Shown here: positions 4,679 to 42,968 of the stretch, one piece after another
Position numbering within the stretch: the stretch's first letter is position 1
How the letters are laid out: each line of letters starts with the position of its first letter
Assembly: GCA_964526595.1 (NCBI GenBank)
Contig: CAZGJF010000007.1
Coordinates: 827-64,826 of the forward strand
DNA length: 64,000 nucleotides
Source of the DNA: an uncultured Akkermansia sp.
GTDB taxonomy: Bacteria > Bacteroidota > Bacteroidia > Flavobacteriales_D > Crocinitomicaceae
Direction: 5' to 3'
Notes under the pieces: generated by a model
The model's input: the letters and a program-made list of their open reading frames with translations, nothing else
What the model was told of the DNA's origin: nothing
The model's database searches: none
Made by a program: the position numbers and the translations under genes

Positions 4679-4870
4679 TGCTATCAAAAAGCTAAATTAT
4701 GATTAGGTTAATTTAATGATTTTTTAATTACATCTTAAAGTTAACCAAAACATTAAGATAATTTTGTTTTCTAATGAATTTTGAGACAAAATCATCTTGT
4801 TTGTTGCCCGATAATAACAAATTTCTACAATCGGAGAGAATGCGGATAATTTGCAAAAATAAATCTACGG

Positions 4871-18293: not shown

Positions 18294-19529
18294 ATGGCTT
18301 GTTCAAATTGCAGTAGTGAAGGAGGAACTCCACGCGGATGTAAGAATAATGGCACCTGTAGTTCGGGTGGTTGTAACAAATTAGAGGTATTTGACTGGCT
18401 AGCCAATATTTCTCCGGCTAACGGACAAAGCTCATATGATATTGTCGAGGTTCGTTTTAAAAACAGTCGCAAGAGTTTTTATCGAAATGCAAAGAATTTT
18501 TCTCTTCAGGTGGGAGATGTGGTGGTAGTAGAGGCTAGTCCTGGGCATGATGTGGGCGTAGTTTCTGTAGTTGGAGAATTGGCAAGGATTCAGGTAAAAA
18601 AGAAAGCACCCGGACTGAAGCCGGTTGAGACGAAGAAGATTTACCGCATCGCAACACAAGATGATATTGATAAATGGATTAAGGCGCGTTCGCTTGAAAA
18701 AGAAGTAATGTATAAGTCGCGTACCTTAGCGGTGAATCTAAACCTTGAAATGAAAATTTCAGATGTTGAATATCAGGGAGATTTAACCAAAGCTACTTTT
18801 TATTATACTGCGGAGGGACGTGTTGATTTTCGCCAGTTGATAAAGGATATGGCCGATCAATTTAAAATCCGTGTTGAAATGCGTCAGATAGGTTCGCGTC
18901 AAGAAGCTTCCCGATTGGGCGGTATTGGATCCTGTGGGCGCGAGTTGTGTTGTTCCACCTGGTTGACCGATTTTAGATCAGTTGCAACTTCAGCCGCACG
19001 TTACCAGCAATTATCACTCAATCCACAAAAGTTAGCCGGACAGTGTGGAAAGTTAAAATGTTGTCTGAATTACGAATTAGATATGTATTTAGATGCCATC
19101 AAGGCTTTTCCAAAAACAGATAATAAGTTACAAACTGAAAATGGAAATGCCTATTTCGTGAAAACAGATGTTTTTAAGCAACTTATGTGGTATTCTTATG
19201 AAGGTGAAGCAGGTGGAGGGTTGGTCTCGCTGACACCTGATCGGGTTCGTGAAATTGCTAAAATGAATGCCGAAGGTAAAAAGCCAAAAGAACTAAACGA
19301 ATTGGTTCAGGTAGAGAAAAAAGAACCGGATTATACAAATGTTGTTGGGCAAGATAGTTTGAATAGATTTGAGCATACATTCAAAAACAAAAAGAACAAG
19401 AAAAAGCCAGGCAAAAAAAATCGAAATCAGCAACAAAATTCGATGAATTCAGAGAGTGCCAATTTCAATCGAGGAGACAAAATTACACAACCATCCGATA
19501 ATAAAGCTAATCCGAAAAATAGTAGGTAA
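18294..19529 (+). CDS. ricT: PSP1 domain protein (RicT/YaaT-like)
   Basis: Cys-rich N-terminus MACSNCSSEGGTPRGCKNNGTCSSGGCNKL, then a PSP1 core (...YYTAEGRVDFRQLIKDMADQFKIRVEMRQIG.R..A...GG.G.CGRELCCSTWL). The ORF-track start at 18186 would overlap holB by 37 nt, so I use the ATG at 18294. Confidence 0.85.
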   Translation: MACSNCSSEGGTPRGCKNNGTCSSGGCNKLEVFDWLANISPANGQSSYDIVEVRFKNSRKSFYRNAKNFSLQVGDVVVVEASPGHDVGVVSVVGELARIQVKKKAPGLKPVETKKIYRIATQDDIDKWIKARSLEKEVMYKSRTLAVNLNLEMKISDVEYQGDLTKATFYYTAEGRVDFRQLIKDMADQFKIRVEMRQIGSRQEASRLGGIGSCGRELCCSTWLTDFRSVATSAARYQQLSLNPQKLAGQCGKLKCCLNYELDMYLDAIKAFPKTDNKLQTENGNAYFVKTDVFKQLMWYSYEGEAGGGLVSLTPDRVREIAKMNAEGKKPKELNELVQVEKKEPDYTNVVGQDSLNRFEHTFKNKKNKKKPGKKNRNQQQNSMNSESANFNRGDKITQPSDNKANPKNSR

Positions 19530-19996
19530 TGACTGCTTATCGATTTGTTCCCATTTTTGTTTTAGTAGTTCTGTTGAGTTCCTGTGGAGATTTGCCGGTG
19601 TATGAAAAGTCCTATTCATTTGAAAATCATACGTGGTCGCAACGGGTAAAGCCGGTATTTAAGTTCCCGATTATGGATACCTCAAAACAGTATGATTTTT
19701 TATTAACACTCAGAACGACTACTGATTATAAGTATAATAATTTATGGATTTATCTCAACACGAAGACTCCCGGAGGTCAAACGGCGCGAGAACCCTTTGA
19801 AATTAAAATAGCGAATCCTGATGGAACTTGGATAGGAAAAAAAACAGGCTCCATTGTAGAAAATGTTTTATATTTTAAGAGGCGAAAGTTGCCGGAGAAG
19901 GGAGCTTACATTTTTCAGTTGGAACAAGGAATCACTGCTTCAACTATTGATCAAGTATTGGATGTCGGTTTGCTTATTCAAGAAGTTAAGCGTTAA
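19529..19996 (+). CDS. gldH: Gliding motility lipoprotein GldH
   Basis: Lipobox LLSSCG, size about 155 aa, and KQYDFLLTLRTTTDYKYNNLWIYL...IKIANPDGTWIG...YIFQLEQG... resembling GldH. The start is coupled to the ricT stop (TAATG), as in Flavobacterium synteny. Confidence 0.75.
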   Translation: MTAYRFVPIFVLVVLLSSCGDLPVYEKSYSFENHTWSQRVKPVFKFPIMDTSKQYDFLLTLRTTTDYKYNNLWIYLNTKTPGGQTAREPFEIKIANPDGTWIGKKTGSIVENVLYFKRRKLPEKGAYIFQLEQGITASTIDQVLDVGLLIQEVKR

Positions 19997-21786: not shown

Positions 21787-24700
21787 ATGAAATTCGTCAA
21801 AAGTTTCCGCCTTAATTACAGCAATTATTTGTTAACGTTTTTACTCACAATATTAATTTTAGGTCGTTTGTATGCCCAACCGTCTTATGTGCCTTCAAAC
21901 GGTCTTAAAGGTTGGTGGTCATTTACCGGAAATGCTGATGACGGAAGCGGTAATGGAAATAATGGGTCAGTAACAAATGCCGTTCTTTCATCAGATCGTT
22001 TTGGAAATACAGATGGTGCTTATCTTTTTGATGGCTCTAGCAGTTATATTTCTCTAAACCCAATCAATGGACTGGAAATTAATAATGCAATCTCAATCAG
22101 TATCTGGGCAAAGATAACAGGCATTAATGGCAATACAGATTGTTCTGTCGGTTGCTCTCAATACTTGGTTTCAAGAAACACAGATGTTCAGCAAGAACAC
22201 TTCAGTATTCGCATCGATGAAGTGACATCATCCAATAAATTTTCAGGGCAGGTAAACGATAATTTTACGGCAGGTTGTGGTGTCCAGTCACCTGTTTCTA
22301 CCATTATTCCTCAAGCAGACTGGCACCATATTGTTTTGACCTATGATGGTTCTGAAGTGAAATTATTTGTAGATGGCATACTACAGGGAACATCTCCATA
22401 TACCGGACTAATGAATCCTTCAGGCGAACAAATCTTTTTTGGGATGCATAATGACCCTTTATTTCCTTATTTTGTCAATGGTTTACTAGACGATATCGGC
22501 ATCTGGGACCGTGCACTTACCGCGTGTGAAATTCAGCAACTGTATGATACGACTATTTTTGCACCTGACTTTTTACAGGATACACTTGGGGCATGTGGTG
22601 TTTCTACCGAACTTGTGGCACCCGATGGTTACACCTATGTGTGGAGCACCACCGAAACAAACGATACTATCGCCGTAGCCCAAAACGGGTGGTACAACTG
22701 CACGCTAACTGACGCTAATGGTTGCGCTGTAACAGATTCTGTGTATGTGGATTTACTCGATGCCCACATTGACCAAAATGATACTACAATCTGTGAGGGG
22801 GAAACACTCACTCTTTCAACTCCTGTTATAGGTGCAACAACAAGTGGATGTGCTCCGCTACCTTCCAACTTGCAAAATGGATTAGTAGCTTGGTGGCCTT
22901 TCTGTGGAAATGCCAATGATGAAAGTGGAAATGGGAATAACGGTACAGTGAATGGAGCAACGTTGACAAGTGACCGGTTTGGAAATTCAAATAGTACCTA
23001 TAGTTTTAGCGGGTCTGATTTTATAACTGTCCCTGATAACAATATGTTGGACCTAACTAATAATTTTTCTATTTCTACATGGTTTAATGCATTTTCATTT
23101 CCTGGAAATTCTTTTGGCGGACCAATTAATTTAATTCTTTGTAAAAGACAAAATGTACCTTCAAATATTATTGATGGTTTTGGAGGTTTTGGTGTCTGGG
23201 AATCAAATGGAAATCATATTGTTTCAACTCAAAGCTATCCTAACGCTGGCACGCAAAATTATGCAAGTTCTAGTTACAATATACAGGATTCTGTCTGGTA
23301 TAACTACGTTGTAACCTACGACGATAATACGGATACACTAAAATACTATTTGAATGGGGCGCTTATCTTTAATGAATACTTGCCTTTAGAAATAATAAAT
23401 AATTCTTACGAAATGTTTATTGGTGCATTAGGTTCAACCCCAACCTACTTTTGGAATGGTAAAATAGATGACATTGGCATTTGGAACCGTGCTTTAACGC
23501 AACAAGAAATTCAACAGTTGTACACTCAAGGTCAAGCCACCTACAACTGGTCCACCGGAGATACCACGGCAAGCATAAGCGTAACACCAACACAAACAAC
23601 AACCTATTATTGTACAGTAGACAACGGTATCACGAGCTGCACAGATAGTGTGCTTGTAACAGTTTCTCCGACAACGTATGCAGACCTTTACGATACTGTA
23701 TGTAATGAATATACGGCTCCAAGTGGCCTGTTATATTATACGTCCGGAATTTATTTTGATACCATTCCGAATGCTGCCGGTTGTGATAGTGTTATGACAA
23801 TTTATTTGACTGTGAATCTAAATGATACTGTTTCTATAACTGATACAGTTTGCGATATGTATACGCAAGATGGACAAATGTTCATGTCATCAGGTCTATA
23901 TTCCTATACGATTCCAACGGTAAATGGGTGTGATAGTGTAATCAACTTGGATTTAACTGTTTTGATGTCTTCGAGTAATTCGATCGTAGAAGCCACATGC
24001 AGCCCCTACATCGCGCCGGATGGACAGTCTTTCACAAGTTCGGGATTGTACAATGTAGTCATTCCAAATAGTGTAGGTTGTGACAGCAATATTACGATTG
24101 ACTTGACAATTTTATCGGATTCTATTTATCTGCCTGTTAGTGAATGTTATAGTTATACGGCACCGGATGGAAACACCTATTTTGAGTCAGGCTTATATAC
24201 AGCTGTATTTACTAATCAATACGCTTGTGACAGCACCATCTACATTGATTTAGCTATTTTATCTAACGATACTACCCTTATAGATACAGCTTGTGAATTT
24301 TACACTGCTCCTGATGGTCAAATATATACCACATCAGGTATTTACACGGCAATCCTTCAAAATGCATTCGCTTGTGACAGTACGATTACGATTGATCTTA
24401 CCATGCATTACAATGCTACAAACACAATCGTTGAGTCAGTTTGTGAAACATATACTGCTCCGGATGCTCAGGTTTACACGACCTCCGGAATATATACAGC
24501 AATTATTCCTGCAAGTAATGGTTGCGACAGTATAATTACGATTGATCTTACCGTGAATTACAATACTACAAACACAATTGTTGAGTCGGCTTGTGAAATG
24601 TACACTGCTCCGGATGGACAAATGTTTATGACAAGTGGTATTTACACAGTTACAATCCCTACCACTTCCGGTTGTGATAGTGTTATCACTATCGATTTGA

Positions 24701-25968
24701 CAATTCATCAACCAACTTTTAGTACAATTAATGAAACGGTATGTTCAACGTATAATGCACCTGATGGTCAAATTTATACCATGAGCGGTATTTATACTGC
24801 CATTATTCCAAATATTTATGGATGTGATAGCACGATAACAATCCATTTATCTATTAATAATTCAACTTCCGAGTTGTTCCAAGAGGCTTGTTTAAGTTTT
24901 ACTGCACCCGATGGGGCAGTTTACACAAGTTCTGGTACTTACACGGCACTTATTCCTACTGTGTTTGGGTGCGATAGTTTGATTACAATTTATTTGACAA
25001 TATTTACTCCTACCTCAAGTTTCATAACAGAAACTGCTTGTTCAAGTTATACTGCACCTGATGGTCAAATTTATACTTCATCCGGAACATATACCGCTAT
25101 GATTATGAATGCAGGTGGTTGTGACAGTATAATCACTATTGATTTAACCATTAATCAACCTACACAAAGTACAATCAGTCAATCGGCATGTACACAATAT
25201 ACAGCTCCTGATGGCCAAGTTTATTTTTTACCAGGAACATACGTTGCAGTGATTCCAAATGCTGCAGGATGTGATAGTGTTATAACAATAAATCTGCAAA
25301 TTAATTCAACGACAGCAACGATTACTGATACTCAGTGTTTGTTTTATATTGCACCGGATGGTCAAACTTATACCACCTCGGGTCAGTATTTGGCAGTGAT
25401 TCCAAATAGCGTGGGTTGTGACAGTATAATTGCCATCAACTTAACGATTGTAGATACGGCAGAATGCACGGATGATGCTGATCATGATGGGGTAATTGAC
25501 AATTTGGAAATTTTAGATGGAACCAATCCTTTAGACTCTTGTTCGTATCTAATAACTTCCATGACTTTGGAACAATTGTCGGGAGCCGACTGTGATATGG
25601 ATGGTATTCTTGATACAATTGAGATTAATAATGGAACTAATCCATTTGATTCATGTGATCCAAACAAGATCGGTATTCAATGTCAGGATGGTACGTTCTT
25701 GCCAACCGGATTTTCACCTAACGGAATTGGAGATATTGAAAATGAAAAACTCTATATTCTTCTTGGGAAAAATGTAGCGAACTTCACGTTGTACATTTAT
25801 GATCGTTGGGGGCATTTGGTCTTTACTACAACGGATGATTCTGTTGGTTGGGATGGAACCTATGAAGGTAAGCCATGTAATAGCGGTGTTTATGCCTATG
25901 TCTTAAATGTTACATATACAGACAGATACCCTGACATTAAAACCGGTAACATCACATTAATACGATAA
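21787..25968 (+). CDS. Giant T9SS surface protein: 2x LamG (concanavalin-like), 12 tandem Cys-repeat modules, 2 Asp-rich Ca-binding-like repeats and a type-B CTD
   Basis: The LamG hallmarks occur twice: GNGNNG(S/T)V..A.L.SDRFGN....Y.F.G ... DD(I)GIWNRALT..EIQQLY. There are 12x C..YTAPDGQ.YT.SG.YTA.IPN..GCDS.ITI.LT. The Asp-rich repeats are DADHDGVIDNLEILDGTNPLDSC and DCDMDGILDTIEINNGTNPFDSC. The C-terminus is YIYDRWGHLVFTT..DSVGWDGTYEGKPCNSGVYAY...GNITLIR. Confidence 0.85.
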   Translation: MKFVKSFRLNYSNYLLTFLLTILILGRLYAQPSYVPSNGLKGWWSFTGNADDGSGNGNNGSVTNAVLSSDRFGNTDGAYLFDGSSSYISLNPINGLEINNAISISIWAKITGINGNTDCSVGCSQYLVSRNTDVQQEHFSIRIDEVTSSNKFSGQVNDNFTAGCGVQSPVSTIIPQADWHHIVLTYDGSEVKLFVDGILQGTSPYTGLMNPSGEQIFFGMHNDPLFPYFVNGLLDDIGIWDRALTACEIQQLYDTTIFAPDFLQDTLGACGVSTELVAPDGYTYVWSTTETNDTIAVAQNGWYNCTLTDANGCAVTDSVYVDLLDAHIDQNDTTICEGETLTLSTPVIGATTSGCAPLPSNLQNGLVAWWPFCGNANDESGNGNNGTVNGATLTSDRFGNSNSTYSFSGSDFITVPDNNMLDLTNNFSISTWFNAFSFPGNSFGGPINLILCKRQNVPSNIIDGFGGFGVWESNGNHIVSTQSYPNAGTQNYASSSYNIQDSVWYNYVVTYDDNTDTLKYYLNGALIFNEYLPLEIINNSYEMFIGALGSTPTYFWNGKIDDIGIWNRALTQQEIQQLYTQGQATYNWSTGDTTASISVTPTQTTTYYCTVDNGITSCTDSVLVTVSPTTYADLYDTVCNEYTAPSGLLYYTSGIYFDTIPNAAGCDSVMTIYLTVNLNDTVSITDTVCDMYTQDGQMFMSSGLYSYTIPTVNGCDSVINLDLTVLMSSSNSIVEATCSPYIAPDGQSFTSSGLYNVVIPNSVGCDSNITIDLTILSDSIYLPVSECYSYTAPDGNTYFESGLYTAVFTNQYACDSTIYIDLAILSNDTTLIDTACEFYTAPDGQIYTTSGIYTAILQNAFACDSTITIDLTMHYNATNTIVESVCETYTAPDAQVYTTSGIYTAIIPASNGCDSIITIDLTVNYNTTNTIVESACEMYTAPDGQMFMTSGIYTVTIPTTSGCDSVITIDLTIHQPTFSTINETVCSTYNAPDGQIYTMSGIYTAIIPNIYGCDSTITIHLSINNSTSELFQEACLSFTAPDGAVYTSSGTYTALIPTVFGCDSLITIYLTIFTPTSSFITETACSSYTAPDGQIYTSSGTYTAMIMNAGGCDSIITIDLTINQPTQSTISQSACTQYTAPDGQVYFLPGTYVAVIPNAAGCDSVITINLQINSTTATITDTQCLFYIAPDGQTYTTSGQYLAVIPNSVGCDSIIAINLTIVDTAECTDDADHDGVIDNLEILDGTNPLDSCSYLITSMTLEQLSGADCDMDGILDTIEINNGTNPFDSCDPNKIGIQCQDGTFLPTGFSPNGIGDIENEKLYILLGKNVANFTLYIYDRWGHLVFTTTDDSVGWDGTYEGKPCNSGVYAYVLNVTYTDRYPDIKTGNITLIR
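23671..25458 (+). repeat. 12 in-frame tandem repeats of about 147 bp (about 49 aa) inside the LamG adhesin gene
   Basis: Read from the translation. Neighbouring units at 24385-24466 and 24532-24613 are offset by exactly 147 bp and differ at about 10 of 82 nt by eye. Confidence 0.9.
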
Positions 25969-25970
25969 TT

Positions 25971-27008
25971 ATGAAGAAGATAATATTATTAATTTTTGCT
26001 ACAGTACAATTCACTGTAGTTTTTGGACAAGATTTCCATTTCTCTCAAACAGCTAATACTCCTTTAGTTATAAACCCGGCGGCTGCAGGTGTTTACGATG
26101 GTTGGGAGCGTATTATTGTAAATCACCGTAGTCAGTGGTTGGGTTCGGGTACTCAATTTATGACTACTTCAGTTGCAGCGGATGCGAATTTTTTTAAAAG
26201 TGAAGTAACCCGTAAGGCTCATATAGGAGTGGGGTTGATGTTTTACAATGATATAGGCGGTGATTCGCGCTATGGGGTGCAATCAGCGTTATTGTCACTT
26301 AGTGGGATTTTACCTGCCGGAAAAAAAGGTTATTTTTCTACAGGTATTCAGGGTGGCTATGGAAGTCGAAAAATGAATGTAAATAATTTAACATTTTCAT
26401 CTCAATGGAACGGAGTTACGTTTGATCAATCTGTATTAAGTGGTGAGGGCAACATTGCATCATTTCAATACATGGACGCATCTGCCGGTATGTATTATGT
26501 TTATGATGGTGGTAAAACTTCTTTTAAACGTAACAATGATTTGAAATTTCAATTAGGTTTAGCTGGTTATCATTTAAATAGGCCTAACTTAAATTTTAGT
26601 ATCGTAAATGGAGATCATATGTACACAAAATGGGTCAGTCATGTCGGAGTGGTGAGTGATATTTTTAATCAGGACTTTGCTATTGATGTAAGTGCTGTCC
26701 ATATCATACAAGGCCCTCACACTGAAACCATTTTGGGAGGTATTTTAAAATATCGCTTTATTAATGGAACAAAGTACACCGGTCACTCTCAAGATGCCTA
26801 TGTTGGTATCGGTTCATACTACCGTATCAAAGATGCCATTGTTCCAACCTTGACAGTTGACTGGAAGGGATTTCGATTTGGTGTGTCTTATGATGTAACC
26901 GTTTCAGCTCTTAGGCAGGCTTATAAAGGAGGATCGTTAGAATTTTCTTTAACCTATACAAACTTAAAGTCAGCATTGTTCAGAAACAGAAATGATCGCT
27001 TTAAATAG
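25971..27008 (+). CDS. PorP/SprF-family T9SS outer-membrane protein
   Basis: The signal peptide is followed by the family signature QDFHFSQTANTPLVINPAAAG, then a beta-barrel-like sequence. It starts 3 nt after the stop of the type-B CTD adhesin. Confidence 0.85.
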   Translation: MKKIILLIFATVQFTVVFGQDFHFSQTANTPLVINPAAAGVYDGWERIIVNHRSQWLGSGTQFMTTSVAADANFFKSEVTRKAHIGVGLMFYNDIGGDSRYGVQSALLSLSGILPAGKKGYFSTGIQGGYGSRKMNVNNLTFSSQWNGVTFDQSVLSGEGNIASFQYMDASAGMYYVYDGGKTSFKRNNDLKFQLGLAGYHLNRPNLNFSIVNGDHMYTKWVSHVGVVSDIFNQDFAIDVSAVHIIQGPHTETILGGILKYRFINGTKYTGHSQDAYVGIGSYYRIKDAIVPTLTVDWKGFRFGVSYDVTVSALRQAYKGGSLEFSLTYTNLKSALFRNRNDRFK

Positions 27009-27292: not shown

Positions 27293-28114
27293 ATGAAATT
27301 ACCTCTATTTAAAACTTCAATTCTTGCTTTGATTTTTGGCTATGTTTCACATCTATCAACAGCACAAACTTCAGGATCGCTTACATTTAACTTTACTGAG
27401 GTTTCAAAATCAAATTCAGTAACATACGGCAACCAAGGCCGTCACGTAATGGCTGTATGGATACAAACAAATACCGGTACATTTATCAAGACAATGATGC
27501 GGTATGGTGGACAAAATAGTACATCAGATCATTTACCAATTTGGGCGGGAGTTTCTTCAAATGGTTCTACAACAAATTGTATGTCTTTAAGTTGCAATAC
27601 TGTTGGCGCATCTACAGGTGCTACTTTAAGCAGTTGGTCTGCTAAAACTATCACATGGAATGGCAAAGACGCAAGTGGAAACCTTGTTGCTGATGGGTCT
27701 TATCAGGTTGTGGTTGAAGAATGCTGGGCACACGGTACTTCAGGTAAAATAGTGAGGTATTTTGACTTCACAAAGGGAACATCGCCAGATAATAAAACGC
27801 CTACTACTGATGCTAATTTTTCAAATATTTCGTTGGTATGGAGTCCTTCTTCAGCAGGATTAGAAGAAACAAAGTCAGTTGCAAATATAAAGATCTACCC
27901 TAATCCATCAAATGGAATTATTCATGTAGATTACGATAAAGCTACAGATTTAAAAGTGGTTAATGTTTTAGGGGTTACGGTTTTTGAAGATAAACTTGAA
28001 AACATCAAGGGGTCTAAAAATATTGATTTGTCAGGTTACACCAATGGTGTTTACTTTTTTATTGTATCAGACGGATCAAAAAAGTCAACATACAAAATAA
28101 TACTCAATAAATAA
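27293..28114 (+). CDS. DUF2271-like secreted protein with an ApbE-type flavinylation motif and a type-A T9SS CTD
   Basis: Signal peptide MKLPLFKTSILALIFGYVSHLSTAQ. The DUF2271-like blocks are RHVMAVWIQTNTGTFIKT, GASTGATLSS and ADGSYQVVVEECWAHGTSGKIVRYFDF. The CTD is IKIYPNPSNGIIHVDY...VVNVLGVTVFE...IDLSGYTNGVYFFIVSDG...YKIILNK. Confidence 0.65.
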   Translation: MKLPLFKTSILALIFGYVSHLSTAQTSGSLTFNFTEVSKSNSVTYGNQGRHVMAVWIQTNTGTFIKTMMRYGGQNSTSDHLPIWAGVSSNGSTTNCMSLSCNTVGASTGATLSSWSAKTITWNGKDASGNLVADGSYQVVVEECWAHGTSGKIVRYFDFTKGTSPDNKTPTTDANFSNISLVWSPSSAGLEETKSVANIKIYPNPSNGIIHVDYDKATDLKVVNVLGVTVFEDKLENIKGSKNIDLSGYTNGVYFFIVSDGSKKSTYKIILNK

Positions 28115-28137
28115 ATAATTGTTTTATTAATTATAGT

Positions 28138-28170
28138 GGGCATTCTTTAAGGGATGCCCTTTTTATTTTT
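28138..28170 (+). terminator. Rho-independent terminator shared by the convergent DUF2271-like and apbE genes
   Basis: GGGCATtctttaagggATGCCC hairpin followed by TTTTTATTTTT. The T-tract overlaps the apbE stop codon. Confidence 0.6.
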
Positions 28171-29164
28171 CTCCAATTATGATGTCACCAAGCCCGGATG
28201 TTTTATATACTTTGTAATCTCCATGTTCATCAGAGTAAATCAAGTAGGCTTGAATTTCAGGATGTTTATCCAAGTAATTTATTGCAGCATTGAGTCCCAT
28301 AACCAAAATTCCGGTAGCAGTAGCATCTGAAGTAATGCACTCATTTGCAAAAATGGATGCACTCAATAAATTATTCTTTGTAGGATAACCTGTTTTTGGG
28401 TCAATATGGTGCGCATATTTTACACCATCCTCAATAATGAATCGCCTATAATTTCCTGACGTTGCAATTGCTCTGTTTTCTAATTTAGCGATGGCATAAT
28501 AAGTGTTTCCAGACAATTTGTTGTCATAAGGTTCTTCAATTCCAACAGTCCAGTTTTCGCCATTAGACTGTATCCCCCTTGCATATACTTCTCCACCAAT
28601 CTCAACGATAAACGATGTGATTCCATTTAGTTCTAAATAGCTTGAAACAACATCAACAGAATATCCTTGAGCAAATGCATTAAAATCCAACGTAACTCGT
28701 GGGTCTTTTTTGACAATTTTATTTCCGCGTCTTAGATTTATTTTCTCAAATCCAACAAAGGAGATCATACTGTCGATTTGGTTTTGTCCTATTATTTTCT
28801 TTTTTCCGGGACCAAATCCCCATGCATTCACCAAAGGATAAACAGTTGGATCAAATGCACCACCTGTATTTGTCCAAATTTCTTTTGCCTTGTTAAAACA
28901 GGTGATAAAATAGTTGTCGAGTTTTACGTTTTTCTCATTGCGATTGATTCGTGAAATGATTGAATTCGGTTGATACGTAGAAACCGATAGATCAAAATCG
29001 CGTAAAATACTGTCTATTTGAAATTGTAAATCACGGTTTTGATGATCGTAGTAACTGATGTGATAAAATGTCCCTTGGGCCTCACCCTCCAATGTTTTGA
29101 ATGTTTCTTGTGAGTAAAAAATACTTGAAATGAATATCGAAGAAGCTAATAATAGTGTTTTCAT
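28163..29164 (-). CDS. apbE: FAD:protein FMN transferase (ApbE family)
   Basis: GGAFDPTVYPLVNAWGFGP, AIATSGNYRRF and YAHHIDPKTGYP are ApbE hallmarks. The ATG at 29164 gives the signal peptide MKTLLLASSIFISSIFYSQ. Confidence 0.9.
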   Translation of the reverse strand: MKTLLLASSIFISSIFYSQETFKTLEGEAQGTFYHISYYDHQNRDLQFQIDSILRDFDLSVSTYQPNSIISRINRNEKNVKLDNYFITCFNKAKEIWTNTGGAFDPTVYPLVNAWGFGPGKKKIIGQNQIDSMISFVGFEKINLRRGNKIVKKDPRVTLDFNAFAQGYSVDVVSSYLELNGITSFIVEIGGEVYARGIQSNGENWTVGIEEPYDNKLSGNTYYAIAKLENRAIATSGNYRRFIIEDGVKYAHHIDPKTGYPTKNNLLSASIFANECITSDATATGILVMGLNAAINYLDKHPEIQAYLIYSDEHGDYKVYKTSGLGDIIIGEK

Positions 29165-29619
29165 AATTATCAAACAAAACGTAAATATACTATGGAGGAT
29201 TTTATGAATAATACAGTATTTTTATTTCAATTCTGGATGCAATAAATTAAGACCTTCCAGTAAATAAGAATTTTTCTACATTGATTCAGTGGTTATAAAT
29301 TATGAATACTCTGGATAGTGTATGATTCACACATATAATTAGAAAAATGTTAAATTAGTTTAAAAAAAAGATGTTTCATTTGAATAGATATGAAAATTCA
29401 AATTAATTCAGGTTACCTTTACTATTAAAAGCAACTTTTACATAAACAGAAACGTCTTAAATAGGTCTAAAATGAATATTTCCAGTGCGATAATATATTT
29501 TAACAGTGAAAACAAAATATTTTAACAGTAAATATTGCTACGGCTTTGTATTATTAATGACTATTGCACACTGAAATAGAACAAATACTATTTTTTTATT
29601 AATTTATTAACACATTATT

Positions 29620-30006
29620 ATGGATTTACATATCGGACAATTAATTAAGGAGCAACTGGAAAAATCAGGAATGAAAAAAACCGAGTTCGCTCGTCGTATA
29701 AACATTACTAGTCAGAATGTTTACCACATTTTTACTCGTAAATCAATCGATACTGGTTTGTTAGAAAGTATTTCAGATGTTTTAAAATTCAATTTTTTTG
29801 AGTCTTTGGAGATGCATTACTCAAGGAAGTCAAGTGAAACATGGAACGAAATGGCTCAAAAGTACGGTTCAGCTACGAATCTAATGGAAGCTCTTGAAAA
29901 AGCAAACCGTGATTTGAATACAAATAAAGTACAAACGAAACAATTACAAAAAGAGGTTGACTATCTCAAGGAAATTAATCGATTATTACAAAAGAACGGT
30001 CATTAA
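29620..30006 (+). CDS. XRE/Cro-like helix-turn-helix protein with a coiled-coil tail
   Basis: GMKKTEFARRINITSQNVYHIFTRKS is HTH-like. The C-terminal heptad-like region is KVQTKQLQKEVDYLKEINRLLQK. Confidence 0.6.
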   Translation: MDLHIGQLIKEQLEKSGMKKTEFARRINITSQNVYHIFTRKSIDTGLLESISDVLKFNFFESLEMHYSRKSSETWNEMAQKYGSATNLMEALEKANRDLNTNKVQTKQLQKEVDYLKEINRLLQKNGH

Positions 30007-30018
30007 TAAACAATAGAT

Positions 30019-33000
30019 TTATTTCATTATTGTTACATTTCCTTTTACAATGGTTTCAGTACCGTTTAAACAGGATGCCTTTAAATAATAGTCGAACACA
30101 TCCGGTTCCAGCTTTTTTCCCCTGAACGTTCCATCCCATCCTTTGTTGCGTTCGGTTGTTTCAAATACTAACTCTCCCCATCTGTCAAAAATTCGAAAGA
30201 CTATTTGATCGATGATTTTTCCACGAACATATAAAATATCATTTTCGTTATCACCATTTGGAGTAAAAGCATTCGGAACATATACAAATGGTTGGTCGCA
30301 AATGTATTCCACGGCTTTTATGAATACAGTATCTGAACGTTTACATATTCCATCGCTGACCGTCAAGGTATAAAGCATACTCTCATTAATTAATGCTTGT
30401 GTGTTTTGGCTAGTGGGATTTGCTAAGCCATCCAAAGGTTGCCACTCATAGTTCATTCCGGAGGGTTTTCCTAATAATTTAGTGCTTCCTCCAACGGGAA
30501 TGATATAGTCTGTTGCTGAAGCTTCAACTTCGTTTTCTTGCAAAATCCCTACATTCATATACACAGAGTCTTTTATAATGCAACCATTAGAAGCCTGTGC
30601 TGTGACAAAAAGATATTGGCTTGTGTTCGCTTTTATAATGACTGCATTTTCAGCAACCTGTGAAACAACAATTGAATCGGGAATCCATACGAATGCAAAT
30701 GCAATTTCAGGATTAGTATTAATCGCACTAATAGTGCTATTTTCACCGATGCATAGGGAGTCTTTTCCTGTTAAACTCAGGTCAGAGCTGATGAATTGGA
30801 AATATACACTATCAACTGTTTCACAAGCTGTATTTTCCGCTTTTATATAGAATGTTCCTGATCCTTCAGGAGTAATAATCAGCGTAGAGTCAGCTAAATT
30901 TTCGTTTAGTGTGTCAGAAAAAGCTGAATTTGAAGACCATACAAATTGATTTGCTGTTCCTTGTGTGTTTGCTACAACAATCCAAGGCACAGGTTTACAT
31001 AGTTTAACAGAGTCCTCGACTTGAAGCTTCACTGAATCAATAACTGTTATCTTGATTTGCGCAGTATCTGTCAATAAGCATACACTGTCTTGAACGTATA
31101 AGTTAATTGTATAGATTCCTGTTTCATTGTAGGTAAGTGTAGGTTCGAAAATAATAGAAGAAGTATCGCCATTGCCAAAATCCCATAAATAGCTGTCTGA
31201 ATCAGATGATTGGTTGATTAGTGTTACTGTAAAAGGGACACAACCAATCGTTTGATTCGTTGAGAATTGAGCCTTAGGGATTAGTTGAAAATCAAATTTA
31301 AAAATGATATTGTTGCAGTTAGTACTTAGGTTGGTGTCAGACCATGCCCCCGGCGTGGTCGGAAAATCTGAAAAACCACTACATCCCCCACAGACTGATT
31401 GATATACAACACCATTTTTATCAAAACGTGAAGTGCCCCCGTCAACATGTTCATATGCTTGATTACCACCTAAGTATGTCCCATAAAGCATGTTGTTAAA
31501 ATTCCTGTCGATGACTAATAAATAAAAATCAAAACCATTTGGTGGAGAAGCTTGGAAAGCGTTTGTCGTGACGGGCATACCTGATAGAGGATTTCCTTGA
31601 AGGATATTCGCTCCCCAGCCTGAAATGTAAATATTTCCGCAAATATCGACCATAAATGCAGACGGTGATATGTTTAAAAGGCCATTCCCATTTCCAAATA
31701 TGGTAGAATTCAGATTTGCCGTTAATGTTGGGTTGAGTTTAATGACAAACTGTCCACTATTAGTGTTTACAAAATTGGAATTTTGAATTGGAAATTGACC
31801 TCCACTTGATTGTCCAACCAAAAAGACATTGTCATTTCTATCAATTTCAACAAAAAATGCTTGGTCATAATGCTGCGTACCTATGTAACTTGCATTTACA
31901 ATCGTATTATCTGCCGGATTTAATTTTACAACAAATCCATCTGTTTTACCACCCAAAAAATTAGAATTCAAACCATTGCTTGTAAATAATAGATTTTGTG
32001 AGCTTGTTCCGCCACAAAAAACAATATTCCCGGAAGAATCAACTTTGACTGAATAACAGGCGTCATTATTACTGCCACCATAGTAACTTGAGAATAGAAG
32101 ACTGTCAAGATCTGATGTCAGTTTGAAAATAACACCATCTTGCATACCTGCATTGTTTGACTGAAAAGCATTTTTTAATGGAAAGTTAACTGATTTAGTA
32201 CAAGTTGCAACGATGCAATTTCCAATTGAGTCTAACATGATCTCCCCTCGAAACTGATCACCATAATTAGTCGTTAAAGAATCATAAGATTCAACAGTAT
32301 TATAAATACCTGAACTTACTTTGGTATTGATTCCATCGTTCATTGTTCCCCCAATGTATGTAGAAGCTAAGAGTTGATGTCCATCGGCACTTATTTTTGA
32401 AACATAAATATCGGTTCCCTGATCGGTAAAATGTACCCCATTAAAGGTGAAATTAGCATTGGAGGCTCCACCAGCATGAAAAGATTGATAACCATTCACA
32501 ACAGGAAAATCAACACTTGATGTTGCTCCATATACATATAGGTTGTCAAATTGATCACAGATTAAACTGTGAGCTGTTTCAGTACCCTGATTGTTATCAC
32601 CTCCTCCAAGATAAGTTGTCCAAAGCATGGTAGTTCCATCTGATGCATATTTAGATATAAAAACATCGGTGATACCATCCACCATATTATTTTGAACGGT
32701 AAAGTTTGAGTTTACATTATATGCATTTAAATACGGCGTAGGATATGCATTGCCAAAAACAGTTCCAGCCGAATAAGCGGAGCCATCATGTCCATATGTT
32801 GCAGTCATTCCAAAATTGTCTGTGACAGAACCTGAGTATGTGGCAAAAACTAAAATAGGATCTATAACCAATACCATATTCTTACGATAGAATCCCAGTT
32901 TAAAGCTAACCTTATTTTCTTGAACCTCAAATGAGCAGGATACTGGAATGATTTTTCCATTCACGATTTGAAAAGCATAGGGCTTTTTTTCAGTGATTGT

Positions 33001-33603
33001 CCCTAAAGGAGTAGTAATGAGTAAATCTCCTTTTTCACTAATACTGACTTTTTGCTGCCCCTCCAATTGGAAGTGAATGAGATTGGGATCAATATTTGGT
33101 TTCAAATGAAATTCATATTTCAATCTTGAATCCTGTTCAATGATTTTTAAATCGATCCCGTCGTAAAAATCAATCAATGTAGCTTCACCATAACCCCGAA
33201 CGTCGGATACCCACTTCGATTGATTATTTCCGATAAAATAATTGAAATAATAATCAGAAGGGTATTTCTTTTCGATAGAATTTATTTTATTAGCACCAAT
33301 AAAATTCAGATGAACAACATGTTGTTTATTTGCTGAATTGGAAATGCTCAAATCTTTTGATATTGGATGTTCATGCATTTCTTTGGTGTATGAAAAATCT
33401 TGCAGATGAAAAACAAATTTTTGTTGCTGAATCCATAAATTTCCACCGGAAAAACCTGCTTTGAATAGTATTTCAGGTGCCCATTGACCTTTGTTTTCTA
33501 TGAATTTGTAATGAGTTTGGTGTTTGTAAATTAATTCTTGCCCCTGAATTGAAATAGTCAAGAAAAAAAAACAATAGACAAAACTCGCTGTATAAAATCG
33601 CAT
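30019..33603 (-). CDS. Large T9SS surface protein with SBBP beta-propeller repeats, a PKD-like domain and a type-B CTD
   Basis: The SBBP-type repeats are TYLGGGDNNQG...DNLYVYGATSSVDFPV, STYIGGTMNDG, SYYGGSNNDACYSVKVDSSGNIVFCGGTSS and GTYLGGNQAYEHVDG. The PKD-like motif is YLWDFGNGD. The C-terminus is VPNAFTPNGDNENDILYVRG...IFDRWGELVFET...KGWDGTFRGK...GNVTIMK. Confidence 0.85.
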   Translation of the reverse strand: MRFYTASFVYCFFFLTISIQGQELIYKHQTHYKFIENKGQWAPEILFKAGFSGGNLWIQQQKFVFHLQDFSYTKEMHEHPISKDLSISNSANKQHVVHLNFIGANKINSIEKKYPSDYYFNYFIGNNQSKWVSDVRGYGEATLIDFYDGIDLKIIEQDSRLKYEFHLKPNIDPNLIHFQLEGQQKVSISEKGDLLITTPLGTITEKKPYAFQIVNGKIIPVSCSFEVQENKVSFKLGFYRKNMVLVIDPILVFATYSGSVTDNFGMTATYGHDGSAYSAGTVFGNAYPTPYLNAYNVNSNFTVQNNMVDGITDVFISKYASDGTTMLWTTYLGGGDNNQGTETAHSLICDQFDNLYVYGATSSVDFPVVNGYQSFHAGGASNANFTFNGVHFTDQGTDIYVSKISADGHQLLASTYIGGTMNDGINTKVSSGIYNTVESYDSLTTNYGDQFRGEIMLDSIGNCIVATCTKSVNFPLKNAFQSNNAGMQDGVIFKLTSDLDSLLFSSYYGGSNNDACYSVKVDSSGNIVFCGGTSSQNLLFTSNGLNSNFLGGKTDGFVVKLNPADNTIVNASYIGTQHYDQAFFVEIDRNDNVFLVGQSSGGQFPIQNSNFVNTNSGQFVIKLNPTLTANLNSTIFGNGNGLLNISPSAFMVDICGNIYISGWGANILQGNPLSGMPVTTNAFQASPPNGFDFYLLVIDRNFNNMLYGTYLGGNQAYEHVDGGTSRFDKNGVVYQSVCGGCSGFSDFPTTPGAWSDTNLSTNCNNIIFKFDFQLIPKAQFSTNQTIGCVPFTVTLINQSSDSDSYLWDFGNGDTSSIIFEPTLTYNETGIYTINLYVQDSVCLLTDTAQIKITVIDSVKLQVEDSVKLCKPVPWIVVANTQGTANQFVWSSNSAFSDTLNENLADSTLIITPEGSGTFYIKAENTACETVDSVYFQFISSDLSLTGKDSLCIGENSTISAINTNPEIAFAFVWIPDSIVVSQVAENAVIIKANTSQYLFVTAQASNGCIIKDSVYMNVGILQENEVEASATDYIIPVGGSTKLLGKPSGMNYEWQPLDGLANPTSQNTQALINESMLYTLTVSDGICKRSDTVFIKAVEYICDQPFVYVPNAFTPNGDNENDILYVRGKIIDQIVFRIFDRWGELVFETTERNKGWDGTFRGKKLEPDVFDYYLKASCLNGTETIVKGNVTIMK

Positions 33604-37209: not shown

Positions 37210-37250
37210 CTATGTTTATACTAATTCTAAGTTAATTGCGTTTAGTATTC

Positions 37251-39314
37251 ATGCACAGGCTTTTACTTGTATTTTTTGTCGTGATTTCGTGTGTCGGATT
37301 TGGAAAAGCGGAGAATATTGCGCCCATAATAAATATGCCTGATCCTTCGGATTGTGAATTGACATTGCCTGTTATTCAATGTTTGTCCACAGATGAATTT
37401 GGTGTTGTCACTATCACCTGGATCCCTTCTACAGATCCAAATGGTGTTTTTATGGAATATCGAATCTACTCTGTTCAAGATGGTTTATTGGCCACAATTA
37501 CTAATATTTCAATGAGTAGTTTTACGGTTCCAACAGCAGTAACCCAACAAAATGATTATTACATTTCTTTAGTTTATGACTGCAATGGAACTAATATAGT
37601 TCAAAGTGATACAGTTAACAATCTTTTTTTAGATGTAACTAATCCTTCGGATGGAACCGCAAATCTTCAATGGAATACTCCAATCGAAAGTCCTGTTTCC
37701 ACTATGTCAACTTATTATCATATTTTCAGAGAATTTCCGGCAGGAAATTGGCAGTTGATTGATAGTGTACCCTATAGTGTTCAATTCTATAAGGATACGA
37801 TTGATATTTGTGATGCTTTTTTGAGGTATCAGGTTGTTTTAGAAAATGGTTCATGTAGTTATACATCTAATCATGATGGAGATAATTTTCAAGATATGTT
37901 GACACCGGATATCCCTCACATTCAAAAGGTAAGTATCGATACTTCGAGTAATAAAGTTGTCATTTCTTGGAATCAAAACTATCAGTCCGACACCTATGGC
38001 TATGTGATTTATACATACGATGCCAATGGTTTTTTGTTTGAATTGGATACGCTTTGGGGAATAAATAATACCACATACCTCCACAATACAGATATCAGTC
38101 AGGGTCCTCTTTCATACTCTGTTGCTGCATTCGACTCCTGTCTTACAGAGTCCACTCCTGTTACGTTCCAAACTTCAGCAAAAGCAACAATTAATACATC
38201 CGTATACTTAGAGAGTGAACTGCAAATATGTAACAATTTAGTTTCATTAAATTGGTCGAACTATGTTGGTTGGGATAGTGTGCTATATTATGAAATCTGG
38301 TCTCAGAAGGATCATTCTATATGGCAAAGACTTGACTCAACAAATGGTTTGAGTTTTTCAACTTCGGTTGAAAGTTTGAAAGATTATTGCTTTTTCGTGA
38401 AAGCAATCTCGTTAACAGGTACACAAGCATTTTCAAATCAATCATGTCTTTCTGTGATTGCTCCCACGCCTGCATCTTTTCATTATTTACAATTAGCAAC
38501 GGTAAACGAAAAGCAGGTAGATCTCAAACATTTGGTGGATGCATCGGGTGGGGTAAGGTCGATTTCCTTCGAACGGATGGGAAAAGATGGTACTTTCGAA
38601 GAAATAGCTCAGATTCCCGTCATTTCAAATGAAGTTTTATATACAGATACAGACGTTGAAGTTGACAAACACTCATATCGTTATAGAACTCGTATAGTTG
38701 ATAGTTGTGGGCAATATGGGGTAGTTTCTAATACGGCTCAAACAATACTTTTAAATCACCAAAAAGATGAAATTGAGCAAGTTGTTTATTTGAACTGGAA
38801 TTCATATGAACAATTCAATGGTGGTGTGTTGGGATTTCTGATTTATCGGATTATTGATGATGGTTTCCCTGAGTTAGTGGCGACTTTACCGGGTGAACAA
38901 TTGTCTTATCAGGATGATTTGGCAGAATTAACCTTTCAAGGAAGTGCCTGTTATTTCATTGAGGCAGTGGAGGGTGATAATATTTACAATGCACCACAAA
39001 GTAGCCTATCTAATCGTGTCTGTGAGACGTTTCGACCAATTATTTACGTTCCTAATGCTTTCATGCCGGAGGGGACAAATAATCATTTTTTACCGGTTTT
39101 ATCAATTATTGATCCACAAGATTATCGATTGACTATTTATGACCGAATTGGTCAAATAGTTTTTGAGACGGATAATCCTTCGATCGGATGGGATGGCACT
39201 ATCGGTACAACCGGAATAAAGGCTTCTGCAGCTGCCTATATTTATCGCTTACAGATACATGATGGGGATGGTGTTGAAATTGTCAGACGTGGGCATGTTA
39301 CGTTAATTCGCTGA
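37251..39314 (+). CDS. T9SS surface protein with FN3/Ig-like repeats and a type-B CTD
   Basis: Signal peptide MHRLLLVFFVVISCVGFG from the ATG at 37251 (the ORF-track start at 37236 is TTG). The C-terminus is VPNAFMPEGTNNHFLPV...YRLTIYDRIGQIVFET..PSIGWDGT...AAYIYRLQI...GHVTLIR. Confidence 0.8.
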   Translation: MHRLLLVFFVVISCVGFGKAENIAPIINMPDPSDCELTLPVIQCLSTDEFGVVTITWIPSTDPNGVFMEYRIYSVQDGLLATITNISMSSFTVPTAVTQQNDYYISLVYDCNGTNIVQSDTVNNLFLDVTNPSDGTANLQWNTPIESPVSTMSTYYHIFREFPAGNWQLIDSVPYSVQFYKDTIDICDAFLRYQVVLENGSCSYTSNHDGDNFQDMLTPDIPHIQKVSIDTSSNKVVISWNQNYQSDTYGYVIYTYDANGFLFELDTLWGINNTTYLHNTDISQGPLSYSVAAFDSCLTESTPVTFQTSAKATINTSVYLESELQICNNLVSLNWSNYVGWDSVLYYEIWSQKDHSIWQRLDSTNGLSFSTSVESLKDYCFFVKAISLTGTQAFSNQSCLSVIAPTPASFHYLQLATVNEKQVDLKHLVDASGGVRSISFERMGKDGTFEEIAQIPVISNEVLYTDTDVEVDKHSYRYRTRIVDSCGQYGVVSNTAQTILLNHQKDEIEQVVYLNWNSYEQFNGGVLGFLIYRIIDDGFPELVATLPGEQLSYQDDLAELTFQGSACYFIEAVEGDNIYNAPQSSLSNRVCETFRPIIYVPNAFMPEGTNNHFLPVLSIIDPQDYRLTIYDRIGQIVFETDNPSIGWDGTIGTTGIKASAAAYIYRLQIHDGDGVEIVRRGHVTLIR

Positions 39315-40802: not shown

Positions 40803-42968
40803 TTACTGCTTAACAAAAACCTGTTGTTGAATATGTCCGTTAACTTCAGCTCTGATCCAGTAAGTTCCTGATTTGAGGTCGCTAACTTGGATGCGAGAAT
40901 CTTTGAGTTGTTTCGTAATCACTTTTCCCATACCATCAATGATTTGAACACTAGATGGAAGCTCGTCAATCAAGGTGAAATGTAATTCATTTGAAACAGG
41001 ATTGGGATAAACAGACCAAGGAATCACTTGATCATTTTCTTCCAATCCAATTGTATTTAAAGCTAATTTAACTGCTAAATAAGCATTTAGTTTTCCCCAA
41101 CCCCATTGAGTACTTCCGTTTTCAGGTATTACACCGGTCTTGTTGTCTTCTCGAGCTGATTGAATAATGATGTCTTTGACTTGCTGTGATGATAAGTAGG
41201 GATTTGCTTCCAAGATCAGTGCAGCCACACCGGTTACCATTGGTGCAGCCATAGATGTTCCTGAAAAACGTGCAAACGGATAGGATCTTCCATTGAAATC
41301 TACAGATGTGAGTGTCGTGAAATCATTGTCTGTATATGATGATATTGATGATGCTACAGAAACTCCCGGTGCCGAAATGTCAGGCTTTAGTACTTCATCA
41401 TATCGTGGTCCTATACTTGAAAACGTTGCTATGTTTCCTCCACCTTGAGTACCGTTTAATGTAAGAAATCCACTTGTGTATGCAGCAACACTGATAACAC
41501 TATTTGTGCAAGAAGGTTCGCTGATACCATATAAATTATCACCGATGGTACTGCCTGAACCAAAAAATGAAAATGGCATACCCCAATTTCCAACATCATT
41601 TGATAATTCTGTCACATTCCAAAAGTGAACAATGCCTTCTGTGGCGGTAGATTTTAAAATAACTCTTAGTCCGACATTTGTACATTTGACACGTAAGCGC
41701 ATCTGAGGTCTTCCGTTTTGTGGGTGAGCATTGTCCGCTGAAATGTTATACCAAATAGTATCAGTTTCAATGACCAAGAAGGTGTCAATGTACTGATTCG
41801 TTGTGGAAGTCGAGTAAAAAGGACTTTCTTTTAATATGATTCCTGTGGGATCACAGATATTGATTCCTGCCGCAAAAGAATTACCTTGTTCCCCCCATGC
41901 ATGAATACTCTGACCCCACATATTTGCATTTGCAGAGTAGTTATAAAATTCAATTCGAGACCGTAAGGTATCATTGTCAAAAGTCTTTTTGATATGAAAA
42001 TTGACATCACCATTATTTCCTCCTGAATTCGAAAAAACCACTCCTAAAGCCGAATAAGAATCGATCGCCTGACTAAGTAATGAATTCCCATCTAAAGTTC
42101 CAAAATGATAGAGTCCCCAACTCATATTGACGACTAATCTTCTGGATTCTGCCTGTGCTTTTTGGTACATCCATTCCCATGCATCTAACACTGCTCCTTC
42201 GTCAACCAGAAATGTGACCAATAAGAAATTGGCATCAAACGCTATTCCTCTATAAATCGTTCCGGCACCACTTCCTCCTGCAATTCCCGCTACATGTGAT
42301 CCATGAGTGGCATAACTGTAAATATTGGCTGTATCTGCTCCGGCAGTATGTAAATCTTGAGCATTTAGATATTCAGTTCCATAAGAGAATCCATCCGGCG
42401 AAGGGCCACTTGTTTTGAATTGATCCCATGCAGCAAAAATTCGGGTATTTTGCAATAAGGTGTCATAAAACATTGGTGAAGAATAGTCAAAGCCCCAGTC
42501 TGTGATTCCGATGAAAACGTTTTTACCTGTATATCCTTGTGGTAGGCCGATGCCGGCGTGGACACTATCAGCTCGAATATCCTTCACTGCTCGATCCAGC
42601 TGAGGTTTTATTTTTCCTGCGAGTTGAATTGAACGAATGCCGGGAAGTGAGTGTACATTGTTTAATTGCTCAATTGGCACCTTTAAAGTGATGATTTCAT
42701 TGATTTGACCACCGATTATTATTCCAAGATCAGATAATAATTGATTAGAGAAAGTAGGCCCTTTAGTAGCCAATAATGATATGTAGTAAGCGTTGTTTAA
42801 CTTATGAATGGCAAATCGGGATTGAATATCTTCAGATGGTTTTCCCTTGTTGATTGATATATCATTGATGATTATAGATAAATCAGCCTTTGTGTTTGCA
42901 GGTATGATAACTTGTGCCATAAACAAACGGAGGCAAAAAAATGAGAGTAATGTTAGTTGTATTTTCAT
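40803..42968 (-). CDS. S8 (subtilisin) family serine peptidase with a type-A T9SS CTD
   Basis: The triad contexts are GITDWGFD (Asp), THGSHVAGIAGG (His) and SGTSMAAPMVTGVAALI (Ser). The CTD is WSVYPNPVSNELHFTL...SGTYWIRAEVNG...VFVKQ. Confidence 0.9.
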   Translation of the reverse strand: MKIQLTLLSFFCLRLFMAQVIIPANTKADLSIIINDISINKGKPSEDIQSRFAIHKLNNAYYISLLATKGPTFSNQLLSDLGIIIGGQINEIITLKVPIEQLNNVHSLPGIRSIQLAGKIKPQLDRAVKDIRADSVHAGIGLPQGYTGKNVFIGITDWGFDYSSPMFYDTLLQNTRIFAAWDQFKTSGPSPDGFSYGTEYLNAQDLHTAGADTANIYSYATHGSHVAGIAGGSGAGTIYRGIAFDANFLLVTFLVDEGAVLDAWEWMYQKAQAESRRLVVNMSWGLYHFGTLDGNSLLSQAIDSYSALGVVFSNSGGNNGDVNFHIKKTFDNDTLRSRIEFYNYSANANMWGQSIHAWGEQGNSFAAGINICDPTGIILKESPFYSTSTTNQYIDTFLVIETDTIWYNISADNAHPQNGRPQMRLRVKCTNVGLRVILKSTATEGIVHFWNVTELSNDVGNWGMPFSFFGSGSTIGDNLYGISEPSCTNSVISVAAYTSGFLTLNGTQGGGNIATFSSIGPRYDEVLKPDISAPGVSVASSISSYTDNDFTTLTSVDFNGRSYPFARFSGTSMAAPMVTGVAALILEANPYLSSQQVKDIIIQSAREDNKTGVIPENGSTQWGWGKLNAYLAVKLALNTIGLEENDQVIPWSVYPNPVSNELHFTLIDELPSSVQIIDGMGKVITKQLKDSRIQVSDLKSGTYWIRAEVNGHIQQQVFVKQ

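Follow-up and report, generated by a model that had tools for sequence, protein, structure and literature searches.

A DUF2271 protein with a type IX secretion sorting domain and a predicted ApbE flavinylation site, encoded convergently with apbE in a Crocinitomicaceae genome

The DUF2271 gene and its convergent apbE

The DNA analyzed here (the window) comprises 64,000 nucleotides (nt) of contig CAZGJF010000007.1 from an uncultured Akkermansia sp., which GTDB places in the Crocinitomicaceae (assembly GCA_964526595.1). On its + strand, positions 27293-28114 hold an open reading frame (ORF) of 273 amino acids (aa) that, by ORF, Pfam, and NCBIfam matches, codes for a DUF2271 protein with a type-A sorting domain of the type IX secretion system (T9SS). 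The gene converges with apbE (28163-29164, − strand), which codes for a flavin adenine dinucleotide (FAD):protein flavin mononucleotide (FMN) transferase of 333 aa when counted from the ATG; the ORF lister had placed its start at a TTG at 29173. The original prediction, made from the nucleotide sequence, suggested that the 273-aa product is flavinylated and then exported by the T9SS, an interpretation that the sequence-based computation presented here supported. We consider it rather probable that the two convergent genes form a substrate-enzyme pair, in which the 273-aa protein would be exported by Sec, receive FMN from ApbE at Thr111, leave the cell via the T9SS, and, more speculatively, serve as an external redox relay.

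All sequence blocks named in the prediction (RHVMAVWIQ, GTFIKT, GSYQVVVEECWAHGTSGKIVRYFDF, KIYPNPSNGIIHVDY, GVYFFIV, and KIILNK) were found in the 273-aa protein. The same is true of the S-T-G-A-T-L-S-S stretch (aa 107-114, nt 27611-27634, + strand), the predicted ApbE flavinylation site, in which the codon of Thr111 occupies 27623-27625; the peptide bearing Thr111 includes VGASTGATLSSW. The loop preceding the site contains a Cys-x6-Cys pair (N-C-M-S-L-S-C-N, aa 90-106, nt 27560-27610) that is retained by many, not all, of the closest homologs and is missing from relatives with a shorter loop. This pair may form a disulfide shaping the flavinylation site.

Signal peptides had been assigned to both gene products, and both N termini fit this assignment as judged by eye. 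In the DUF2271 protein, a K-rich and a hydrophobic segment are followed by the sequence STA/QT (slash, cut point), giving a signal peptide of aa 1-24 (27293-27364, + strand) with predicted cleavage between A24 and Q25 and thus an N-terminal Gln; Q25 and T26 are nearly invariant in the alignment of close homologs. The signal-peptide-like N terminus of ApbE ends with FYS/Q, and a Gln follows the cut point in both proteins.

The N-terminal part of the 273-aa protein forms a DUF2271-type β-sandwich domain (aa 24-186, 27362-27850, + strand; span of the family hidden Markov model, HMM), within which PF10029 (DUF2271) matched aa 52-158 (nt 27446-27766) with 27.2 bits and an E value of 3.7e-6. The profile search bore out the proposed DUF2271 domain also in relatives: PF10029 matches were precomputed for 20 of the 24 close homologs, and 37 of 40 diverse relatives matched at E ≤ 1e-3 (best value 1.7e-13). 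The type-A sorting domain claimed for the C terminus (aa 201-270, 27893-28102, + strand) was recovered by Por_Secre_tail (PF18962, 50.7 bits versus a cutoff of 27, aa 201-270) and by NCBIfam TIGR04183 (40.7 versus a cutoff of 23). It occupies the extreme C terminus (aa 201-271 of 273), and its sequence matches 8glk_D, a cargo domain solved inside the T9SS translocon, at 1e-8; a Foldseek comparison with 8glk_D gave a TM score (template modeling score) of 0.76 normalized to the target. In public annotation, such proteins are called either "DUF2271 domain-containing" or "T9SS type A sorting domain-containing," never by both names.

In the AlphaFold2 model, the protein consists of two β-sandwiches (predicted local distance difference test, pLDDT, 72.4), with Thr111 at the start of strand 111-113. 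Foldseek searches with the N-terminal domain returned generic β-sandwiches only, and a search by sequence and fold for a solved DUF2271 structure yielded only sorting-domain, FlgD, and generic β-sandwich matches. The FlgD_ig profile itself scored 27.4 bits on the window protein, at a short W-x-G-x-D...G-x-Y stretch that is common to these β-sandwiches.

The convergent neighbor proved to be an ApbE, as predicted, with PF02424 scoring 278.7 bits over profile positions 2-266 of 266. Its best solved relative is Vibrio cholerae ApbE (6nxi, 6e-51), and the catalytic His is retained: YAH-HIDP of the window enzyme aligns with YSH-IIDP of the V. cholerae enzyme, in which this His is the residue mutated in 6nxj. 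The stop codons of the two genes are separated by 48 bp. A terminator scan and fold-energy calculation found one G+C-rich hairpin in this gap (28138-28159, + strand; ΔG −16.3 kcal/mol, z −2.76), which is terminator-like for the + strand gene. The two genes had been proposed to share this terminator; the single hairpin was there, but sharing was only half shown because a T-run follows on the + strand and none on the − strand. Divergently from apbE and across a gap of 446 bp lies a gene for a small protein of the Cro/C1-type helix-turn-helix family (29620-30006), which adjoins the DUF2271-apbE pair in no other locus.

Conservation of the predicted flavinylation site, the sorting domain, and the apbE linkage

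The motif [ST]GA[ST] occurs once in the 19,620 residues of 47 window ORFs, as the TGAT of aa 108-111. Its conservation in orthologs was borne out at three depths. Among the 24 closest homologs (41-100% identity), no variation occurs at A106, T108, G109, or A110, and 23 have Thr at position 111 while one has Ser, so that the site is intact in 24 of 24. It is kept in 87 of 89 copies of the N-terminal domain from species-level loci, and in a wider set of 103 sequences, drawn from the matches of a family profile search at E ≤ 1e-20 and aligned to the family profile, 96 carry [ST]GA[ST] at the homologous column.

The species-level loci were obtained by scanning one genome per species (GTDB). This yielded 79 loci, mostly from metagenome-assembled genomes (MAGs) of freshwater Crocinitomicaceae or Flavobacteriales, whose proteins share 36-53% identity with the window protein. 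The apbE adjacency recurred throughout this set: of the 77 loci whose downstream sequence is long enough, 64 have apbE convergent and immediately downstream as in the window (gap 16-304 bp, median 64). Four loci contain apbE in another arrangement, nine have none despite more than 1.1 kb of downstream sequence, and in two the contig ends too early to judge. Clustering of the neighboring ORFs revealed that the outer flanks of the pair vary among loci on both sides; the window's own neighbors are not shared with other loci, except for one downstream gene common to a single locus. A 270-kb contig also carries the convergent pair, with other flanks; the N-terminal domain encoded there is 62% identical.

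The constancy of the pair bears on the most serious competing explanation, according to which the genome has a single general flavin transferase, the product of this apbE, which NqrB/NqrC encoded at another place require; the DUF2271 protein would be another client or a mere neighbor of it, with no dedicated module. We give this explanation nearly even chances. Na+-translocating NADH:quinone oxidoreductase (NQR) is carried by most Bacteroidota, and the window ApbE has its greatest similarity to the V. cholerae enzyme, which has NQR as its client. Moreover, site-bearing DUF2271 sorting-domain proteins without a nearby apbE occur in five loci (L008, L052, L074, L172, and L173), and therefore some unlinked ApbE must serve these. 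The adjacency in 64 of 77 loci despite changed flanks is, however, hard to explain without selection for linkage, and a general ApbE would in any case be compatible with flavinylation of the DUF2271 protein.

Searches beyond the species-level loci showed how far the family extends. A library search with the N-terminal domain only retrieved 923 clusters (50% identity) at E ≤ 0.001, of which 257 reached E ≤ 1e-10; among the best 150 of the 923 clusters, a C-terminal type-A sorting domain is present in about 90 and D-A-x-[ST]-G-A-[ST] in about 97. The profile search gave at least 541 protein clusters (90% identity) at E ≤ 1e-20, and among the 120 matches listed of these, all carry PF18962 and nearly all also PF10029. 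Judged by these matches, the DUF2271-sorting-domain form is widespread in Bacteroidota, and tight pairing with apbE characterizes one large subfamily. Two members of the family, P0044 (955 aa) and P0167 (1,080 aa), contain three and two DUF2271 domains, respectively, with every DAx[ST]GA[ST] site intact, and may be flavinylated more than once.

Of the 89 copies, the two without an intact site (mutated to AAAT and TAAT) belong to large T9SS proteins of 683 and 1,254 aa, both encoded at locus L079 (3428-5479 and 5795-9559), in which a DUF2271-like start is followed by many immunoglobulin (Ig)-like repeats. Their sequences suggest adhesin-type derivatives that no longer carry a flavin. Two other stalked forms have an intact site ahead of PKD/Ig_7 repeats and then the sorting domain; the arrangement of these relatives suggests a surface-displayed head.

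Site loss in the L079 paralogs, which sit on long Ig-repeat stalks, implies that the fold can serve without the site. It thereby favors the view that the protein is ordinary T9SS cargo whose Ig-like (FlgD_ig-type) N-terminal domain has a structural or adhesive role, that TGAT serves folding, and that apbE is a neighbor by inherited synteny. The FlgD_ig score on the window protein (27.4 bits versus 27.2 for DUF2271) and the generic β-sandwiches found by Foldseek are in line with this view. On the other hand, the tetrapeptide is that of ApbE targets and is conserved while nearby loop residues vary, it is unique among the 47 window ORFs, and the one constant neighbor is the modifying enzyme itself. 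A purely structural role of the domain is thus very unlikely in our judgment.

The sorting domain is retained in 84 of the 89 copies. Four species (L081 and L084-L086) have a 190-aa form that lacks it and is still encoded beside apbE. In L081 (9950-10522) and likewise in L084-L086, the gene of this form directly follows a cytochrome c gene, and a tetratricopeptide repeat (TPR) gene present in related clusters (see below) is missing. The 190-aa form is a natural periplasmic counterpart of the T9SS-tagged protein. It shows that the domain can work in the periplasm, like canonical DUF2271, and its operon with genes for cytochrome c, YceI, and DUF5777 lends itself to a further explanation for the window protein, namely that it is flavinylated but has its place of action in the periplasm or on the inner side of the outer membrane, with a sorting domain that is inactive or used for turnover or anchoring. 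Yet 84 of 89 copies have the sorting domain, its scores exceed the curated cutoffs by a wide margin, and the stalked variants look like surface display; a periplasmic site of action for the tagged form therefore appears highly improbable.

Candidate electron-supply genes and T9SS context

None of the 44 window ORFs scanned with Pfam (0.3-60.6 kb) contains an Nqr, Rnf, FMN_bind, PepSY, DUF4198, cytochrome, YceI, or DUF5777 domain. The lack of nqr and rnf genes in the window, noted in the original prediction, was hence confirmed for these ORFs. It says little by itself, since linkage of apbE to nqr is not required and the gene may code for a general ApbE. In six related loci, no PepSY-like or DUF4198 protein is annotated among the called genes. 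A canonical PepSY system was rejected as a reading of the window locus, where neither PepSY nor DUF4198 is present.

In relatives, genes with a possible link to electron supply were found next to the pair. Among the 27 loci with at least 5 kb of sequence on both sides, the pair adjoins in ten a block coding, in this order, for a DUF5777 outer-membrane barrel, a YceI-like protein, a small membrane protein, a 115-aa CxxCH lipoprotein, and a TPR protein. From its heme-binding motif, the 115-aa lipoprotein is probably a monoheme cytochrome c. The association recurs in other arrangements, at least four gene orders being represented in all: the block is inverted in L023 and L024, lies on the far side of apbE in L035, L039, and L063, and in L088 occurs with a divergent apbE and two cytochromes, whereas L174 has DUF2271-DUF5777-YceI beside cytochrome bd genes. 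In L174, a distant relative, the genes for subunits I and II of the cytochrome bd oxidase (3069-5749) lie directly upstream of the DUF2271 sorting-domain gene; those for DUF5777 and YceI follow it, and hemerythrin genes are nearby. The module is conserved and widespread in metagenomes; it comprises the DUF5777 barrel, the YceI-like protein, one or two CxxCH lipoproteins of about 115 aa, and sometimes a four-helix membrane protein of about 125 aa (L021:7250-9927, L005:6842-9934, L088:4082-6980, and L174:6879-8309); it is free-standing in L092-L171. DUF5777 was not mentioned in the literature searched.

HMMs built for the module gave no match in the window even at E ≤ 1. A reverse test starting from DUF5777 retrieved 80 metagenome loci, of which two contain a DUF2271 domain and one contains apbE. 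The module was therefore rejected as an obligatory partner of the pair, being mostly free-standing (80 loci) and absent from the window. Because of this free-standing occurrence, the idea of an outer-membrane conduit was downgraded to a hypothesis on electron supply. According to it, electrons would cross the outer membrane by a path specific to Bacteroidota that ends at the cell surface with the T9SS-displayed FMN-DUF2271 protein. Together with this protein, one or two small c-type cytochrome lipoproteins, the YceI-like protein, and the DUF5777 barrel would deliver electrons from respiration to Fe(III) or other oxidants outside the cell. We hold such a path to be unlikely.

The same evidence has to be weighed for the possibility that the exported flavoprotein does not relay electrons but acts, for example, as an extracellular oxidase or peroxide generator, as a light-absorbing protein, or as a vehicle delivering bound flavin. 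No electron-supply partner is encoded among the scanned window ORFs, and the carriers are mostly freshwater Flavobacteriales MAGs that are assumed to live in oxic water, both of which would suit such functions. Against them stand the ApbE substrates studied so far, all of which act in electron transfer (PMC8238504, PMC11334425), and the c-type cytochrome or cytochrome bd genes that the gene adjoins in several lineages. A non-relay function was accordingly rated as decidedly unlikely.

The window provides evidence of a T9SS in this organism. It codes for GldH (108 bits, 19529-19996), PorP/SprF (112.6 bits; TIGR03519, 149 bits; 25971-27008), and five sorting-domain proteins besides the DUF2271 protein, from which we conclude that the organism uses a T9SS; this evidence comes from window genes only, the core genes gldKLMN and sprA lying outside the window. 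One of the five, a 1,393-aa protein with two Laminin_G_3 domains, many Cys-containing repeats of about 70 aa, and CHU_C, is encoded immediately upstream of the PorP/SprF gene, which begins 2 bp later (together 21787-27008). The two genes appear to code for a type-B cargo and a PorP-like partner belonging to it, independent of the DUF2271 gene. The PorP/SprF gene (25971-27008) was also considered as part of the DUF2271 system and rejected, since it pairs with the preceding CHU_C gene and does not lie beside DUF2271 elsewhere. The four further cargo genes (4871-8341, − strand; 30019-33603, − strand; 37236-39314, + strand; and 40803-42968, − strand) code for three CHU_C proteins (one with PKD, one with DUF7948, SBBP, and PKD, and one with no other domain) and an S8 peptidase with Por_Secre_tail.

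Proposed route of the predicted flavoprotein and comparison with known systems

The findings on the pair can be arranged in a sequence of four steps. The 273-aa protein would first be exported by Sec, with its signal peptide cut before Gln25. ApbE, predicted to reside in the periplasm, would then move FMN from FAD to Thr111 of the A-x-T-G-A-T loop, a step assigned by homology and with strong comparative support; the same reaction has been shown for a proteobacterial DUF2271 protein. T9SS transports folded proteins. The type-A domain would be recognized in the third step, and the folded flavoprotein would pass through the T9SS to the cell surface or the medium. In the fourth, speculative step, the covalent FMN would act as a small external redox relay. 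Iron-responsive DUF2271 systems of the periplasm serve as the analogy for its favored task, which is to reduce Fe(III) or some other oxidant outside the cell. This extracellular function is the weakest step of the scheme, with Fe(III) reduction as the leading, speculative guess.

Several points weigh against a dedicated, exported substrate-enzyme pair. The DUF2271 score of the window protein is 0.1 bit below the Pfam gathering cutoff of 27.3, although membership is clear despite this shortfall because 20 of 24 close homologs and 37 of 40 relatives match PF10029. The AlphaFold2 model has a pLDDT below 50 over aa 70-108, immediately before the site. With regard to linkage, nine loci have no nearby apbE, a distant subfamily of 243-250 aa (30-36% identity) likewise lacks it while retaining the site, and the same holds for a Gaetbulibacter homolog (41% identity); convergent genes are not co-transcribed, and the window apbE may be the cell's general one. 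The covalent flavin and the secretion of family members are predictions from sequence. Concerning function, the usual PepSY-like membrane partner is absent from the window (44 ORFs scanned), where no electron donor is encoded nearby either, and a flavin in oxic water would auto-oxidize, so that a steady electron relay needs a supply route.

DUF2271 was identified as an ApbE substrate by Meheust et al. (2021, eLife; PMC8238504). The A. ursilacus protein was flavinylated by its cognate ApbE, and exchange of Thr for Ala in [S/T]GA[S/T] abolished the modification (PMC8238504); the positional equivalence of TGAT to this site rests on TGAT being the sole conserved such motif in the family. The usual context of DUF2271 genes consists of PepSY-like, ApbE, DUF2271, and DUF4198 genes, for which a role in iron reduction was proposed (PMC8238504), and DUF2271 clusters have been linked to iron limitation in Caulobacter and Alteromonas (PMC12004947, PMC7190382). 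The window protein resembles these canonical proteins in its Pfam domain, the single [S/T]GA[S/T] site, the signal peptide, and the apbE linkage. It differs in lacking a PepSY-like, DUF4198, or TonB-receptor partner, in the convergent rather than operonic arrangement with apbE, in its Bacteroidota host, and in the T9SS type-A domain, which predicts a location at the surface or in the medium instead of the periplasm. A fusion of DUF2271 to a T9SS tag without PepSY/DUF4198 partners was not found in the literature searched, and neither the main text of PMC8238504 nor the other literature searched connects flavinylation, ApbE, or DUF2271 with the T9SS. Thus, DUF2271 as an ApbE substrate is already known, and what is new is its coupling to a T9SS sorting domain without the canonical partners.

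With NqrC/RnfG and NqrB/RnfD, the window protein would share an FMN phosphoester installed by ApbE on the periplasmic side at the last Ser/Thr of S/T-G-A-S/T. Those proteins, however, have unrelated folds and are subunits of inner-membrane ion pumps, none of which is encoded in the scanned window ORFs.

Ordinary T9SS type-A cargo, such as NucA in the Flavobacterium johnsoniae translocon (8glk) and the gingipains, also combines a Sec signal peptide with a C-terminal PF18962/TIGR04183 β-sandwich, but the known cargo proteins are hydrolases, adhesins, and motility proteins. No T9SS cargo with a covalent redox cofactor was reported in the literature searched, in agreement with the suggestion that such a redox module has not been characterized among T9SS cargo. 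If the proposed route is correct, the protein would be the first reported T9SS cargo, within that literature, with a covalent redox cofactor loaded before export. An iron or redox role could matter for the life of these bacteria in the water column, since most family members come from freshwater Flavobacteriales MAGs.

The known ApbE flavinylation sites are in inner-membrane pumps, in periplasmic proteins, and at the cell wall of bacteria without an outer membrane; the proposed route would place flavinylation chemistry on the outer surface of outer-membrane bacteria. A parallel is the PplA/FmnB extracellular electron transfer system of Listeria monocytogenes, reportedly described by Light et al. 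in 2018. There, too, an ApbE-family transferase loads FMN on a surface protein that passes electrons to external acceptors. PplA is a lipoprotein with FMN_bind domains in a host without an outer membrane, and its electron supply is known (Ndh2, demethylmenaquinone, and EetA/B), whereas the window protein has the DUF2271 fold and would cross an outer membrane via the T9SS. Were it to form the end of an electron path through the cytochrome c-YceI-DUF5777 module, the result would correspond to the Mtr and PplA systems, with a flavin at its tip and the T9SS as its basis.

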